A stretch of 24,163 nt of DNA from a virus (lineage: Duplodnaviria > Heunggongvirae > Uroviricota > Caudoviricetes): positions 1-24,163 of IMG/VR virus record IMGVR_UViG_2565956616_000001, one strand, 5' to 3'. Positions within the stretch are counted from its first letter, which is position 1, and each line of letters starts with the position of its first letter. Shown here piece by piece: positions 1,446 to 6,017 of the stretch. The position numbers and the translations under genes are program-made. The notes under the pieces were generated by a model that saw only the letters and a list, made by a program, of their open reading frames with translations, ran no database searches and was not told the DNA's origin.

Positions 1446-1925
1446 TTAAATTGCGTGAATAGCGTGACGAGGGAAGGGGAGAGTTACTGGTTCCTCGTCT
1501 GGGTAGATAGGTTTGTTATGTTTGTGCCACTCGACATGACATGACTTGCAGAGCCACATTACATCGGTTGGTTTGCTGTAGTCGCAGTGGTGCGCCTGTG
1601 GTTTACATTCTGATCCGCAGCACTCACATTGTGGTGGTCGGATTAGCTTACCGTCGCGCAAAAAATTACCCACAATGATGTGGGCTTTTCTTTTCCATGG
1701 GTTGCTCTGAATGAACCGCTTTTTGGCTGCGTTACACCGTTCTCTTCCGCGTTCCGATGATTGATATTCTCTCCTTGCTGATACTCGATGTGGCAATCCA
1801 GCGCGTTCTTTGTCGTATTCAGCCAGGCAAGCCCGGCAAGCGGCAGTTAATCCATCTCTGGATGCTCTTCTGATTTGAAAGTCCCTTTCTTCCTTCTGTT
1901 GATGGCATCTTGAGCAGATTTTCAT
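1446..1925 (-). CDS. HNH-family endonuclease-like zinc-binding protein
   Basis: Cys-rich N-terminus (CSRCHQQKEERDF...CRAC) and C-terminal HNH-like motif (CECCGSECKPQAHHCDYSKPTDVMWLCKSCHVEWH). Confidence 0.6.
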   Translation of the reverse strand: MKICSRCHQQKEERDFQIRRASRDGLTAACRACLAEYDKERAGLPHRVSARREYQSSERGRERCNAAKKRFIQSNPWKRKAHIIVGNFLRDGKLIRPPQCECCGSECKPQAHHCDYSKPTDVMWLCKSCHVEWHKHNKPIYPDEEPVTLPFPRHAIHAI

Positions 1926-2408: not shown

Positions 2409-3116
2409 TTATGCCGCCTGTTTTAGCTCGTTAACTCTGATGTTCATTACCTGAACGCATTTAGCCTGCGCATCCTCATTGCCAGCCATTAATTGCCAGT
2501 CACGCTGATAACGCTCGATGAGTTTTTTCTTGTCAGTTTCTGTTGACGCATAATCGCTGAAGTCTTTCAGGATTTGCTCGCAGTCAACCGATGGAGATTT
2601 CTGGTTGGTATTTTCTGGTGATGGTTTGTTATCTGATGCTGGGATTGCCCATCCCGGCAGCGATGGAGGGAGCCAGTAAAATCCTGTTCCATCCTTGAGT
2701 TTTGCCCTGTGCCATCCCTGCTTTTTATCGAGAGATGTTTGTGCGAAACCTTCCTCAAGGTTATACAGATACCGACCGATTCCCCACTGTACGGCAGTGC
2801 GCTTCATTGCACCGGAACGACCACCTTTGACGGCTTCTACCTGCGTGTTTTCAGCAGCATCCCATTTGGTTACCCATTCGGAATCAATCCTGATTGATAT
2901 GCCGCATTCAACGCCGCCGTTGTTAGGAATATCGCGGTATTCATTGCGCCATCCTGCTTTGCCACAAACATCGTCAAGGCGTTTCATGATTGCCCGGTTC
3001 GTGACATAAGCCAGCACCATAGCCCACACTTTGCCATCGCGTGTTTTACCGCTTTGCTGTATTCGCCATTCGATATCTTCAGGGCTGAATGGCTCATCGA
3101 ATTTATTCAAATCCAT
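2409..3116 (-). CDS. Rad52-like single-strand annealing protein (phage recombinase)
   Basis: 235-aa protein with a conserved core (KRTAVQWGIGRYLYNL) resembling Rad52/Sak-type annealing proteins; immediately upstream of and contiguous with ssb (stop/start adjacent at 2408/2409). Confidence 0.65.
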   Translation of the reverse strand: MDLNKFDEPFSPEDIEWRIQQSGKTRDGKVWAMVLAYVTNRAIMKRLDDVCGKAGWRNEYRDIPNNGGVECGISIRIDSEWVTKWDAAENTQVEAVKGGRSGAMKRTAVQWGIGRYLYNLEEGFAQTSLDKKQGWHRAKLKDGTGFYWLPPSLPGWAIPASDNKPSPENTNQKSPSVDCEQILKDFSDYASTETDKKKLIERYQRDWQLMAGNEDAQAKCVQVMNIRVNELKQAA

Positions 3117-3215
3117 AAATCACCTCAGAATGGACACGGCCCAAGGAAATAACGCTGATTTAATACTTCGACTCGGGACAAATTAAGGCATACCCGCATT
3201 CCTTCGCGGTCGCCA

Positions 3216-3374
3216 TTATGGCGATACCAGAGAGCTTTCTGCGTGTACATGCGTCTCTGTAACTTGCTCTCCTTCACTGTGGTTGCAAGTGACATGAATA
3301 TCTCCTTCGTTACCGATTAATTCTTTCATCTGACGAATGAATTCTTCGTCTGACCAGTTATCCGTAAAACTCAT
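3216..3374 (-). CDS. small hypothetical protein (52 aa, MSFTDNWSDEEFIRQMKEL...)
   Basis: ATG at 3374-3372 overlaps the cIII-like stop in an ATGA coupling arrangement; acidic small protein in the kil/cIII neighbourhood. Confidence 0.35.
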   Translation of the reverse strand: MSFTDNWSDEEFIRQMKELIGNEGDIHVTCNHSEGEQVTETHVHAESSLVSP

Positions 3375-3541
3375 GGACGGCCTTGTTGTTTCAAAATATC
3401 CCAAAGCTTTTCGAGCAAACTTTTCATTCTTGGTTGTTTAAAGTCTGCTCCGGTTAAAATATTTTTTCGTGAATGCTGTACCGATAAAATTGGGTTGAAA
3501 GGGCGAACCGATGCCGCCCCTGCAATAGCGAACTGTTGCAT
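3371..3541 (-). CDS. cIII: cIII-like small regulatory protein (56 aa)
   Basis: Internal Met of track ORF 3371..3646 with strong GAAGGAG Shine-Dalgarno (plus 3549-3554 CTCCTT, reverse complement). Sequence MQQFAIAG...KSLLEKLWDILKQQGRP resembles lambda cIII (MQYAIAG...LIDILNQPG) from memory. Confidence 0.5.
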   Translation of the reverse strand: MQQFAIAGAASVRPFNPILSVQHSRKNILTGADFKQPRMKSLLEKLWDILKQQGRP

Positions 3542-3604
3542 AGGATGCTCCTTCTGTTTGATTGCATAACGAAAACGCCTCGAATGAAGCGTTATTGGTA
3601 TGCA

Positions 3605-3631
3605 TATAAAAAAGCCCTCACACTGGAGGGC
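3605..3631 (-). terminator. rho-independent terminator (minus strand)
   Basis: Inverted repeat GCCCTC/GAGGGC (3614-3619 / 3626-3631) with 6-nt loop, followed on the minus strand by a U-run (plus A-run 3605-3613). Confidence 0.5.
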
Positions 3632-3749
3632 AAAGAAGATTTCCAATAATCAGAACAAGTCGGCTCCTGTTTAGTTACGAGCGACATTGCTCCGTGTATT
3701 CACTCGTTGGAATGAATACACAGTGCAGTGTTTATTCTGTTGTTAGTGC

Positions 3750-3775
3750 CAAAAATAAAGGCCGACTATGCGGCC
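3750..3775 (-). terminator. rho-independent terminator (minus strand) at the end of the 212-aa gene
   Basis: GGCCG/CGGCC stem (3760-3764 / 3771-3775) followed on the minus strand by a U-run (plus AAAAATAAA 3751-3759); the gene's stop codon lies in the loop. Confidence 0.5.
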
Positions 3776-4404
3776 TCGGAAGGAAGTCCAATCATCTTAT
3801 TCAAATCTTCTACCCGTAAAGCAGGAAGTGCTGTACTTGCTTTATCTGCTTCTTTTGGTAGCAATTCTTTGCTTTCAGGCCAAACTTCAATAAGTCGCTT
3901 AACTGTTGTGACTGAGTTCAAAGCAGCCCATACATTTGATTCGATATCCTTTTTCTTGGCTTCAAGTTTTTGTTGCAATGCGCAGATTTCATCAAACCTT
4001 TTTGTTATTTCGTGTTCTGCGCTAAACATGCATTTATCTTCGGTCGGAGTAGGGAGCAATATATCTTCGCCGTTGCCGTCTTTCCCATATGAATGCCATC
4101 CAACCCTTCGGCCAGATACAGTCAGATAAATTGAAGTAGAACGAACATCGTATGAGTAAAATGAACATCCCAGTTTTTCAAGTTCTTCACTTATAGCTAC
4201 TAACTTGGAATATAAATGATCCACTTCCTCAGTTTTCTTTTTACCGCCAAACGCAATAACTCTGGCGTCAAGTGCAAGCTGGTTCTTTAACTTTGTTACT
4301 TCTTCAAGTTCAGTGAAAACCCCAGACTTAATTAAAGCGTTACGAGCGATTTCCTCTTTCATTCTCGTAGTTAAGCGGATTGATGACATATTAATTCCTC
4401 TCAA
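3766..4404 (-). CDS. hypothetical protein (212 aa), unrecognised accessory gene
   Basis: Long ORF with GAGG-type RBS upstream of ATG 4404; hydrophilic, no recognisable motif; bracketed by terminators on both sides. Confidence 0.6.
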   Translation of the reverse strand: MRGINMSSIRLTTRMKEEIARNALIKSGVFTELEEVTKLKNQLALDARVIAFGGKKKTEEVDHLYSKLVAISEELEKLGCSFYSYDVRSTSIYLTVSGRRVGWHSYGKDGNGEDILLPTPTEDKCMFSAEHEITKRFDEICALQQKLEAKKKDIESNVWAALNSVTTVKRLIEVWPESKELLPKEADKASTALPALRVEDLNKMIGLPSEAA

Positions 4405-4502
4405 ATAAGTGGTTTGCTACCTAATTTCATTTTCTGGCGACCAACACAAGTCACGCCCATTTCACTGCGTGGCTTGCGGTAGTAAATTAGGTTTGTTCAG
4501 AC

Positions 4503-4525
4503 AATAAAAAACCCACCGAAGTGGG
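4503..4525 (-). terminator. rho-independent terminator (tL1-like) right after the N-like gene
   Basis: CCCAC-CGAA-GTGGG hairpin (4512-4525) followed on the minus strand by a U-run (plus AATAAAAAA 4503-4511). Confidence 0.55.
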
Positions 4526-4864
4526 CTATGACCATTTTTTATTTGGATTTCGTTGGTGAGCGTGATTAACAACTCTGTGCATTACATCCTCATATTTTTC
4601 ATCTTCAATTTTTTCGACATCGCGAGGAAATGGTGTTGCTAATGCTTTGTCAACTTTGTCCATTGGTTCTTCATTAATCTTATATTCAGGACCGTCATCT
4701 ATAGCATTAAATCCAGGTGTTATACCGTTTTTTAATGCATATGCTATCCTTTTTTCCCATCTCGCTATTCTCCTCCTGTCTCGAGATGTAATACCTCTAT
4801 CAGATACTTTTCTGTTTTGTCCGCTGTCAGGATTAACATAAATAGTCTTTTTCACCATAAGCAT
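4526..4864 (-). CDS. N: N-like transcription antiterminator (arginine-rich motif protein)
   Basis: First gene downstream of the OL/pL region on the leftward strand; arginine-rich motif SRDRRRIARWEKR near the N-terminus resembles boxB-binding ARMs of lambdoid N proteins. Start uncertain (TTG 4870, ATG 4864, ATG 4858); weak RBS. Confidence 0.45.
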   Translation of the reverse strand: MLMVKKTIYVNPDSGQNRKVSDRGITSRDRRRIARWEKRIAYALKNGITPGFNAIDDGPEYKINEEPMDKVDKALATPFPRDVEKIEDEKYEDVMHRVVNHAHQRNPNKKWS

Positions 4865-5126
4865 ACCCAATAAGCACCGTACGGTAGTTTACTGTACAAT
4901 TTTATTTTTTGGACTGCATGTATTTTGTTTCCTAATGGGTTTGAATCTTTGCAATAAATACTTCTATTTTTTCGAACGGCTTCTATATCAAAAAGCTGCT
5001 TTGCTTTTGTGACTAAAAGCAAAAAAGCCTTCTCGCTAATGAGCAGCATTGCCGTTCATCCTGAACCCGCCGCGCTCCCGACGCATGGTTTAATGTCGCG
5101 CCGTTCGACATGGCTTAACTATATCC

Positions 5127-5153
5127 AAAGCTATTATTGCTGTAAATAGCTAT
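5127..5153. promoter_or_regulatory. OL-type operator palindrome (AAAGCTATT-N9-AATAGCTAT) within the pL region
   Basis: 9-bp inverted arms separated by 9 bp, the same architecture as a site in the cI-cro intergenic region; AT-rich promoter-like sequence adjacent. Confidence 0.5.
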
Positions 5154-5241
5154 AGTTATAAAATAACTCCTTTGGTTATTTAGTTATTGATATCTAATGT
5201 AATTTATTTTTCTTGTATGTGAGATTTGGTGTTTTTTGGGC

Positions 5242-5265
5242 AATAAAAAACCCGCAAAAAGCGGG
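5242..5265 (-). terminator. rho-independent terminator downstream of the repressor gene (minus strand)
   Basis: CCCGC-AAAAA-GCGGG hairpin (5251-5265) followed on the minus strand by a U-run (plus AATAAAAAA 5242-5250). Confidence 0.55.
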
Positions 5266-5285
5266 TTTGTTGTGGTGTGATGAGG

Positions 5286-6017
5286 TTAGTAGTCAACTAC
5301 AGACCACCAGAAGATTCTTCCGATGATCTCGATATCGCTTAGATTCTTTTCTTCTTGTGGGTATTCCAGTGAGTTAAAGCTTCTAATGCTTACCTTGTCA
5401 GGCCCTGATCGAAAGAGAATCTTAATGCGTTTCCAACCGTTCTCGTTAATGGCGTAAATCTTTCCGTCAACTATTTTCTTATCGTTGGTGTTAACAGCAA
5501 CTGTTGTTCCATCAGGAATGTTTGGCTCCATACTGTTGCCACGAGCCGGAAAACAAACAACCCCGCTTCCATCACTGTTCGCGCCAACTCTGCGAAGGGT
5601 TGATTTGGAGAAGCGCAACATAAAGCCGTTGTGATCTTCATCAATCACCCGACCATCCCCGCATGCAAACTCAATATCTTTAAGGTAAGGAATTTCAACT
5701 TCATCACCTCTTAAAGGCGTTCCTCCATCCCATGGGTCCAAATATCCCCACGTGCTTTCATGAGGAATAGAAGATTTTGGATTATAAGGTTCAACTCCCT
5801 CATCACGCATTGGCCCAGTTCCATCTGAAAGCCATTCCGTACGAACTCCAAGCACTTTTGATATTTCAAAAAGTTTGCGCGTATTGCGTGTTTTTCCAGA
5901 CGTAAGTTTCCAGACGCTTGGCTGAGACATGCCAACAGCATTGCCAAGAGAAGCCTGAGTAAACCCAGCCTGATCCATCGCGTATGTAAGCCTTTGAGAA
6001 AAAGTATCTAGTTTCAT
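5286..6017 (-). CDS. cI: cI-type prophage repressor (HTH N-domain plus LexA-like S24 peptidase C-domain)
   Basis: N-terminal HTH (QASLGNAVGMSQPSVWKL) and C-terminal S24 autocleavage domain with catalytic Ser (GNSMEP) and a downstream Lys; divergent from cro; no Shine-Dalgarno upstream. Confidence 0.9.
   Translation of the reverse strand: MKLDTFSQRLTYAMDQAGFTQASLGNAVGMSQPSVWKLTSGKTRNTRKLFEISKVLGVRTEWLSDGTGPMRDEGVEPYNPKSSIPHESTWGYLDPWDGGTPLRGDEVEIPYLKDIEFACGDGRVIDEDHNGFMLRFSKSTLRRVGANSDGSGVVCFPARGNSMEPNIPDGTTVAVNTNDKKIVDGKIYAINENGWKRIKILFRSGPDKVSIRSFNSLEYPQEEKNLSDIEIIGRIFWWSVVDY

Follow-up and report, generated by a model that had tools for sequence, protein, structure and literature searches.

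An Nmad5-family gene cassette beside an HK022-type nun module in a P22-like lambdoid phage

The accessory genes ral, sieB and ea10 of phage lambda, which are non-essential and depend on antiterminated transcription from the leftward promoter pL, lie in the interval between N and cIII. In what we take to be the same slot, and in a comparable situation, a minus-strand gene occupies positions 3766 to 4389 of a 24,163-nucleotide (nt) stretch of tailed-phage DNA (IMG/VR virus record IMGVR_UViG_2565956616_000001, positions 1 to 24,163), referred to below as the window. The gene encodes a protein of the Nmad5 family (nucleotide modification associated domain 5, Pfam PF18757). A Pfam scan at E<=0.1 reveals no similarity of this protein to the Ral, SieB or Gam families and no sequence relationship to Ea10; SieB, moreover, has a membrane segment, whereas the window protein has none. 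Its closest described relatives are found in lambdoid phages, Yuaviruses and Dhillonviruses.

In lambdoid phages, the relatives represent the same gene. Copies in mEp235 (mEp235_037), HK542, PhiR12, Kapi1 (Kapi1_018) and E. coli RefSeq records encode proteins of 207 amino acids (aa) with 95-99% identity to the window protein, and are located after N or Nun and before cIII. The modules that precede them differ: PhiR12 has only N, mEp235 and Kapi1 have both N and Nun, and the window has putL and Nun but lacks N. The Nmad5 domain had previously been noted by the annotators of Kapi1, and RefSeq/PGAP names the gene 'Nmad5 family putative nucleotide modification protein'.

The family name derives from the gene context in Yuavirus/M6-type phages. 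In Yuaviruses (YuA, Lydia, M6/SN1), Nmad5 lies in a thymidine-hypermodification cassette, between genes for 5-hydroxymethyldeoxyuridine (5-hmdU) DNA kinase and the gene for a dUMP hydroxymethylase. Its products there (YuA gp15, Lydia PaL_00002, SN1_019) are stand-alone proteins of ~186 aa that match PF18757 at E=4e-56, and thus resemble the window protein; the window differs in having no such genes alongside, since a hydroxymethylase, a 5-hmdU DNA kinase (HMUDK), an aGPT-Pplase or other modification enzymes are all absent from its 24 kb. The Lydia annotation led us to consider homology to the helical domain of 5-hmdU DNA kinase (PF18723), which we rejected: the Nmad5 profile aligns with YuA gp14 at an hhalign probability of 0.35%, and the Lydia Nmad5 homologue matches PF18757 only. 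A paper reconstructing the thymidine-hypermodification pathways contains no mention of Nmad.

The Dhillonvirus protein (PhiSMS22 CDS6, PhiSMA8 CDS7) is the sole family member for which genetics is available (PMC11846954), and the phenotypes described are those of the Dhillonvirus protein, not of the lambdoid one. We used Oekolampad gp07, which at 254 aa has the standard Dhillonvirus length, as a proxy for the PhiSMA8 protein. It matches PF18757 over its full length (E=6.9e-60) and shares 34% identity with the window protein over the C-terminal 100 residues, including T-x-K-K-L-I-x-x-W-P-E and L-N-x-x-x-G-x-P. Dhillonvirus members differ in their length of 254-334 aa, in a divergent N-terminal half and in their position as a solo opposite-strand gene among the head genes of a virulent phage. 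Yamashita et al. 2025 (PMC11846954) mapped Dhillonvirus escape from the Tmn defence to the nmad5 substitutions K216E/K296E, and sensitivity to Tmn returned upon reversion of the mutation. Deletion of nmad5 was viable and led neither to Tmn escape nor to sensitisation, while the wild-type gene could not be cloned and was apparently toxic. The authors interpreted the mutation as conferring a gain of function and assigned the anti-Tmn activity to a different protein; their label of 'DNA modification enzyme' rests solely on citing a computational paper (Iyer et al. 2013). This study is the only functional treatment of Nmad5 in the literature searched, where neither an anti-defence activity of Nmad5 nor a biochemical base-modification role for any member is reported. 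Two further leads, the Ksap1/KpAvs2 and RAZR triggers in Dhillonvirus SECphi18 and the accessory-gene screens in the literature, proved unrelated to Nmad5.

Assignment and predicted structure of the window protein

The initial annotation of this locus described an unrecognised protein that could not be assigned to any family. We took as members of Nmad5 those proteins that score above the Pfam gathering threshold with full coverage of the model. The window protein reaches 240 bits where the cutoff is 27 (E=3.4e-71), and its residues 4-203 cover the model from end to end (positions 1-206 of 206). A match to PHROG 1965, a group of unknown function, was obtained as well, at E=1.3e-82 and 278 bits. 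The assignment is thus to an established family, and not to a known housekeeping phage protein, Nmad5 having no demonstrated function. Other profile collections returned little: besides Nmad5, the Pfam scan gave just sub-threshold chance matches to YfjL_C and P4Ha_N, NCBIfam gave no match, and none of the defence-protein hidden Markov models of PADLOC-DB v2 matched at E<=1. The window gene is therefore a known and already named member of Nmad5.

The gene had been listed as an open reading frame (ORF) of 212 codons with a TTG start at 4404. Translation almost certainly begins instead at ATG 4389, to judge from a GAGGA motif 6 nt upstream, from the N-termini of homologues and from the coding sequences (CDSs) of 624 nt annotated for the same gene in mEp235, PhiR12 and Kapi1; in the homologue alignment, all N-termini read M-S/T-S-[IV]-R-L-T, equivalent to a start at ATG 4389. 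The ORF is a genuine coding gene, well beyond chance, as is evident from the Pfam E-value, from the 2,315 clusters of the family and from a ratio of nonsynonymous to synonymous polymorphism (pN/pS) of 0.34 across 58 close alleles. The 207-aa product has a mass of 23.2 kDa, an isoelectric point (pI) of 6.0 and a grand average of hydropathy of -0.35, in agreement with its earlier description as hydrophilic, and sequence-property analysis finds no hydrophobic or membrane segment in it. GC content is 40% in the gene, against 48% for the window. On the opposite strand, a 133-aa ORF with a GTG start (3728-4129, plus strand) and listed antisense ORFs of 40-41 aa overlap the gene; these look like shadow ORFs of a conserved minus-strand gene.

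Nmad5 is a large, phage-borne and phage-specific family. A search of 1.84 billion representative proteins yields relatives that group into 2,315 clusters at 50% identity, and all those retrieved are stand-alone proteins of ~200 aa with PF18757 as their only domain. The phages concerned have hosts among Vibrio, Pseudomonas, enterobacteria and alphaproteobacteria. The gene is near-universal in the virulent Dhillonviruses (at least 146 Dhillonvirus records) and also occurs in N4-like phages. Alleles with 95-99% identity are present in 211 of 5,426 complete E. coli genomes, and the surrounding region is common to 337 phage records, which include mEp235, HK542, Kapi1, PhiR12 and many Shiga toxin (Stx)-converting phages. 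Among the latter, Stx2a-converting phages (48 records in a tblastn summary) have the end of an insertion sequence (IS) in place of the initial ~100 nt of Nmad5. In one of them, Stx2_716 (LC616058.1; L182, 325-1225), a 108-aa ORF resembling OrfA of the IS3 family abuts the 5'-truncated gene. Such truncation implies that the gene is dispensable in those Stx2a prophages.

AlphaFold2 models of the window protein were built with 21 and then with 57 aligned homologues, the mean confidence (predicted local distance difference test) rising from 85.9 to 92.3 and the predicted template modelling score from 0.71 to 0.82. The predicted structure consists of three long N-terminal helices (residues 8-72), a small beta element (86-100) with additional short strands, a 32-residue helix (127-158) and short C-terminal helices; a disordered and variable linker (181-190) precedes a conserved terminal helix (194-200) modelled with intermediate confidence. 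When compared with BFVD using Foldseek, the model recovered as its top 15 matches (E from 9e-13 to 2e-3) proteins that, where named, are all Nmad5, the remainder being unnamed or uncharacterised. When the family profile was run against PDB sequences, only chance coiled-coil matches (E>0.2) came up, and the predicted fold does not significantly match any solved one.

Conserved columns were defined as those invariant, or at least 90% conserved, among 57 diverse members. Four positions are invariant (L166, W170, P178, N197), and I14, A18, R43, G48, G93, T162, P171, E172, L176, L196 and G201 are near-invariant; the window protein retains all of the family-wide residues R43, G48, G93, T162, L166, W170-P171-E172, L176, P178, L196-N197 and G201. 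Near-invariant positions are mostly G, P, A, L or I, and the pattern of conservation is structural or interface-type, not catalytic. The most constrained segment is C-terminal and reads T-x-K-[KR]-L-x-x-x-W-P-E-x-x-E-L-L-P ... L-P-A-x-x-V-x-x-L-N-x-x-I-G-L-P. In the proxy alignment, R165 of the window protein pairs with the Dhillonvirus K216, the second lysine in T-D-K-K-L-I-K-A-W-P-E, so the lysine involved in Tmn escape would fall within the family's best-conserved motif. Substitutions among 60 E. coli prophage variants are concentrated in residues 50-125, whereas 150-205 are nearly invariant; these two regions could represent a diversifying surface and a conserved interface, respectively. 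Variable positions lie in helix 3 and the beta region, e.g. 58, 60, 71, 73, 80-83, 99, 116, 117 and 123. The idea of a DNA mimic was rejected, with the pI of the window protein at 6.0, a family range of 5.0-9.6 and no acidic bias.

Cassette boundaries and the upstream nun module

The gene and its immediate flanks behave as a unit. In related lambdoid loci, the homology block containing Nmad5 breaks upstream at 4400-4510 (74 of 80 loci) and, in most of the 80, downstream at 3510-3740, just outside the ORF; the cassette is therefore a mobile, one-gene element made of a leader of ~20-100 nt, the CDS and a terminator that overlaps the stop codon. The same slot in other phages holds different small genes. 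The breakpoints, the low GC content and these slot swaps bear out the view of the initial annotation that the gene sits in an accessory slot, here as a discrete cassette near the promoter of the leftward early operon, in its variable part.

A consensus scan of 3000-5400 found six terminator-like sites, against 2.3 +/- 1.4 in shuffled sequences, with GC-rich stems followed by U-runs and hairpin energies of -9.9 to -11.1 kcal/mol. The terminators previously proposed around the gene are real, their coordinates shifting slightly to 4527-4510, 3777-3758 and 3631-3614, and a fourth is added at 3593-3574 (Table 1). Insulation by terminators, as it had been put, is a more qualified matter. Terminators do flank the gene on both sides in the window, but only the downstream one travels with it: the 3758-3777 hairpin falls within the block of conserved homology at each of the 80 related loci and a terminator-like hairpin directly follows the Nmad5 stop codon in 59 of 77, whereas a hairpin occurs within 250 nt upstream in only 20 of 77 and the nun terminator of the window in only 5 of 77. 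The upstream terminator belongs to the nun module and not to the Nmad5 cassette.

Table 1. Features of the Nmad5 cassette and of its surroundings, in window coordinates
Feature	Position	Strand	Basis and remarks
ORF as listed	3766..4404	(-)	TTG start, 212 aa
Nmad5-family CDS	3766..4389	(-)	207 aa + stop; Pfam, PHROG, homologue starts, annotated 624-nt CDSs
Shine-Dalgarno-like GAGGA	4396..4400	(-)	6 nt 5' of ATG 4389; read from sequence
Intrinsic-terminator-like hairpin, overlapping the Nmad5 stop codon	3758..3777	(-)	Scan; folding -11.0 kcal/mol
Terminator-like hairpin upstream of cIII	3614..3631	(-)	Scan and folding
Fourth, weaker terminator-like hairpin upstream of cIII	3574..3593	(-)	Scan and folding, z=-3.0
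cIII gene, next gene downstream of Nmad5	3371..3541	(-)	PHROG 550 on residues 36-91 of 91-aa ORF
Strong terminator directly 3' of the nun-like gene	4510..4527	(-)	Scan; GC stem, UUCG loop, U6; folding z=-2.66
HK022-type Nun-like transcription termination factor	4526..4864	(-)	PHROG 5632 E=9e-70; 112 aa by analogy with HK022/O276; 97% DNA identity to HK022/O276 nun
nun promoter equivalent (-35, -10)	4891..4919	(-)	Mapped from O276/HK022 annotation; identical sequence in alignment
putL antiterminator RNA equivalent	5041..5103 (about)	(-)	2 mismatches to O276/HK022 putL
pL-like sigma-70 promoter TTTACA-17-TATAGT	5118..5146	(-)	Scan; coincides with annotated HK022 pL -10

Upstream of the cassette, the slot had been delimited by an N gene. 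The gene located there is in fact an HK022-type nun with putL ahead of it, and the window contains no N-like ORF. Positions 4860-5117 are 97% identical to the pL-putL-Pnun-nun region of HK022/O276, and the nun product has the same 112 aa. The resemblance ends after nun, where HK022/O276 have IS903 and then tL2a/ea10 and the window has the Nmad5 cassette, and in the repressor region, which in the window is of another immunity type than in HK022. With putL and Nun but no N, early-left antitermination belongs to the RNA-based HK022 type. Rfam reported nothing in the window, putL included, as no Rfam model reports putL. The repressor gene itself (5286-6017) is of a type shared with APC_JM3.2 and PDP110P2. 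Directly 3' of it, on the minus strand at 5248-5268, lies a strong terminator-like hairpin of 8 base pairs followed by a T-run, so that maintenance transcripts of the repressor should not enter pL or nun.

This arrangement has consequences for the expression of Nmad5. According to the HK022/O276 annotation, the own promoter of nun (Pnun) sits downstream of putL; transcripts from it lack putL and are therefore expected to stop at 4527-4510. Between 4390 and 4527, a simple consensus scan found no promoter-like site with at least 9 of 12 matches. The combination of this result with the nun terminator suggests that Nmad5 is reached only by putL-modified transcription from pL, and that the gene is probably silent in the lysogen and expressed as a delayed-early gene during lytic growth. 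Such lytic-only expression would argue for a function in the lytic cycle and against a defence gene expressed in the lysogen. A structured 5' leader or riboswitch was rejected, since the leader of Nmad5 has no significant structure (z=-1.1) and Rfam has no match in the window.

Gene neighbourhoods of Nmad5

The window phage is P22-like/lambdoid. Its genes are, in order, abc2, an exonuclease, an endonuclease, SSB, a Rad52-like annealing protein, small genes, cIII, Nmad5 and the Nun-like gene, then a cI-type repressor, a cro-like gene, cII, an O-like gene, a primase-helicase, NinB, Ant, RusA and Q, and finally lysis genes, terminase and a P22-type portal. Nmad5 is thus the first gene of an operon that also includes the Rad52-like, SSB, endonuclease, exonuclease and abc2 genes. 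Two other genes of these modules deserve mention. The 826-aa protein encoded at 7818-10298 (plus strand) combines primase-like (PHROG 510) and DnaB-like helicase (PHROG 19) matches, in a fused module that adjoins the O-like initiator and replaces a loader of the lambda P type. The 159-aa 'endonuclease' at 1446-1925 (minus strand; PHROG 2340), between the SSB and exonuclease genes, shows in its N-terminal region a further, weaker similarity to restriction-alleviation proteins of the Lar type (PHROG 5558, E=7.5e-7).

In other phages, the neighbours of Nmad5 vary. An N4-like Ithacavirus has the order PolI-DUF6378-ThyX-Nmad5-PD-(D/E)XK nuclease-primase, a temperate phage has a repressor followed, further on, by Nmad5-DUF7173-Sak4 (AAA_24)-DUF669-helicase, and other loci place the gene between a DUF2800 nuclease and PolA or in the series SNF2 helicase-Nmad5-ParB-like. 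In two unrelated metagenomic phages (L096, 6001-7205; L098, 4286-5559), the stop codon of Nmad5 overlaps with the beginning of the next gene; that gene encodes an Rv2179c-like (DEDDh) 3'-5' exonuclease and has a family-A DNA polymerase downstream. This overlap, the tightest pairing seen for the family, suggests translational coupling. Elsewhere, Nmad5 is found in the nin region (SPN3UB), in small-gene islands between terminase and portal (ZRG1 and L099) or as a solo reverse-strand gene among structural genes (Dhillonviruses and metagenomic phage L100).

For a broader view, we counted Pfam domains in the three genes on either side of Nmad5 at 24 dereplicated IMG/VR loci (143 neighbours). HTH_3 was found 6 times and Peptidase_S24 4 times, both as in cI-type repressors, and the N peptide twice; DUF2800, Enc34 ssDNA-binding, DNA_pol_A and PDDEXK_1 were found 3 times each and AAA_24 twice, with single occurrences of DUF669, DUF3799, Rv2179c-like, VapE and dUTPase. 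HMUDK, aGPT-Pplase and hydroxymethylase were found at none of the 24 loci within this distance. The common denominator is that of an early gene, in most cases leading a replication/recombination module or lying within one, which matches the place of Nmad5 here at the start of the Rad52-like/SSB/nuclease operon.

Possible roles of Nmad5

Our preferred reading, held tentatively, is that Nmad5 acts in phage DNA metabolism or host takeover, as a non-enzymatic binding protein made in the delayed-early phase of the lytic cycle. Pnun transcripts, without putL, would end at 4527-4510 and leave the gene off in the lysogen; polymerase modified by putL and coming from pL would read through this site, and Nmad5 would then be transcribed with delayed-early timing. 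The product would be a soluble, mostly helical protein of ~23 kDa suited to binding rather than catalysis, with the conserved C-terminal T-x-K-[KR]-L...G-L-P segment as a putative interaction surface. Its target may be a conserved component of host or phage DNA metabolism, or DNA itself, engaged at the onset of replication/recombination. A step of thymidine hypermodification would not be among its tasks in the window phage. We propose a role in DNA metabolism because the Nmad5 genes of diverse phages head or join early replication/recombination modules, and a non-enzymatic binder because of the models, the family-only Foldseek matches, the non-catalytic conserved residues, the stand-alone PF18757 and the invariance of residues 150-205; hypermodification is set aside here because the 24-kb window is devoid of hydroxymethylase, 5-hmdU DNA kinase and aGPT-Pplase.

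Several points weigh against this proposal. The putative tie to replication/recombination comes from gene context, which in mosaic phages is a weak guide. Some 25% of the contexts (Dhillonvirus, L100, ZRG1, L099, SPN3UB) are not DNA-metabolism modules, and no obligatory partner gene emerged, the BLAST clustering of the 143 neighbours giving no cluster larger than 5. The gene is dispensable, as seen from the viable Dhillonvirus deletions (PMC11846954) and from the IS truncation in Stx2a prophages. Finally, the absence of a promoter comes from a simple consensus scan, and silence in the lysogen is itself an inference from sequence. A more specific role as a substitute for anti-RecBCD proteins of the Gam/Abc type was considered and is weakened by the co-occurrence of abc2 here, in mEp235 and in PhiR12.

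The early position of the gene could alternatively reflect timing only. Nmad5 would then be a dedicated counter-defence protein that binds and neutralises, or hides the phage from, a component of host immunity such as the membrane NTPase Tmn. A swappable cassette in the slot of lambdoid accessory genes of the ral/sieB type, the low GC content of the gene (40%) and an allelic diversity focused on one surface region, residues 50-125, with a pN/pS of 0.34, all fit this idea, as do the solo reverse-strand genes among late genes of some virulent phages, which suggest separately timed expression, and, as the sole experimental hint, the Tmn escape of Dhillonvirus nmad5 K216E/K296E mutants (PMC11846954), at a lysine that aligns with R165 through the Oekolampad gp07 proxy. 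However, the Dhillonvirus became neither more sensitive to Tmn nor resistant to it when nmad5 was deleted, the mutation having been interpreted as a gain of function and the anti-Tmn factor being another protein (PMC11846954), and the size of the family (more than 2,300 clusters), together with a C-terminal motif that is near-invariant across phage hosts, fits a conserved core target better than a patchily distributed defence system. Adding that no anti-defence activity is reported in the literature searched, we consider a dedicated counter-defence role possible but less likely than our preferred reading. An accessory function in nucleotide or DNA modification is what the family name implies: Nmad5, itself non-catalytic, would serve as an adaptor to recruit or stimulate the enzyme that carries out the modification, perhaps a host enzyme in lambdoid phages. 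This would have a parallel in Ral, which stimulates EcoKI methylation and whose position in the lambda gene order is presumably the one that Nmad5 occupies in the window. The Yuavirus cassette and the position after ThyX in the N4-like phage point the same way. Such an adaptor is nevertheless improbable, given the lack of any modification enzyme in the window or of HMUDK, aGPT-Pplase and hydroxymethylase near the 24 dereplicated loci, the silence on Nmad of the hypermodification-pathway paper, the hhalign probability of 0.35% that leaves no relation to the HMUDK helical domain, and a protein with no enzyme-like fold or residue set.

The initial annotation had raised the prospect of a defence function. 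A defence role in the lysogen is unlikely, and its most explicit form, a prophage-expressed defence or superinfection-exclusion moron, appears highly improbable. Such a moron would have in its favour a variable slot, low GC content, a terminator of its own immediately downstream (the hairpin 3777-3758 with its U-run, retained in related loci) and the neighbouring nun, itself an exclusion gene expressed in the lysogen. Yet the consensus scan of 4390-4527 shows no sigma-70 promoter immediately upstream, and a strong terminator separates Pnun from Nmad5. PADLOC has no match to the protein, a membrane segment is absent, the gene is cut short by an IS element in Stx2a prophages, and Nmad5 is a core gene of the virulent Dhillonviruses and also occurs in N4-like phages, all of which have no lysogenic state.

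A wider proposal, possible but more speculative than our tentative reading of Nmad5 as a delayed-early binding protein, is that the family is misnamed altogether. Nmad5 would be a widespread early effector with a fold unlike solved ones, whose flexibly tethered C-terminal helix docks on a conserved host target and thereby protects or primes replicating phage DNA, or blunts immunity. If true, this would explain why a charge reversal in T-x-K-[KR]-L alters the outcome with Tmn, and would make the putL-gated lambdoid copy a tractable model.

By itself, the finding adds little, since hundreds of phage and E. coli records already carry this gene under its family name. The name Nmad5 goes back to gene context in a single group of phages and probably misdescribes most of the family. 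Its remaining interest lies in a named function without experimental basis, in the size of the family (more than 2,300 clusters), in a structure unlike anything solved and in the genetic link of one relative to the outcome with Tmn. The lambdoid copy, with its easy phage-host genetics and a well-understood antitermination switch, would be a convenient one in which to find the function of Nmad5.

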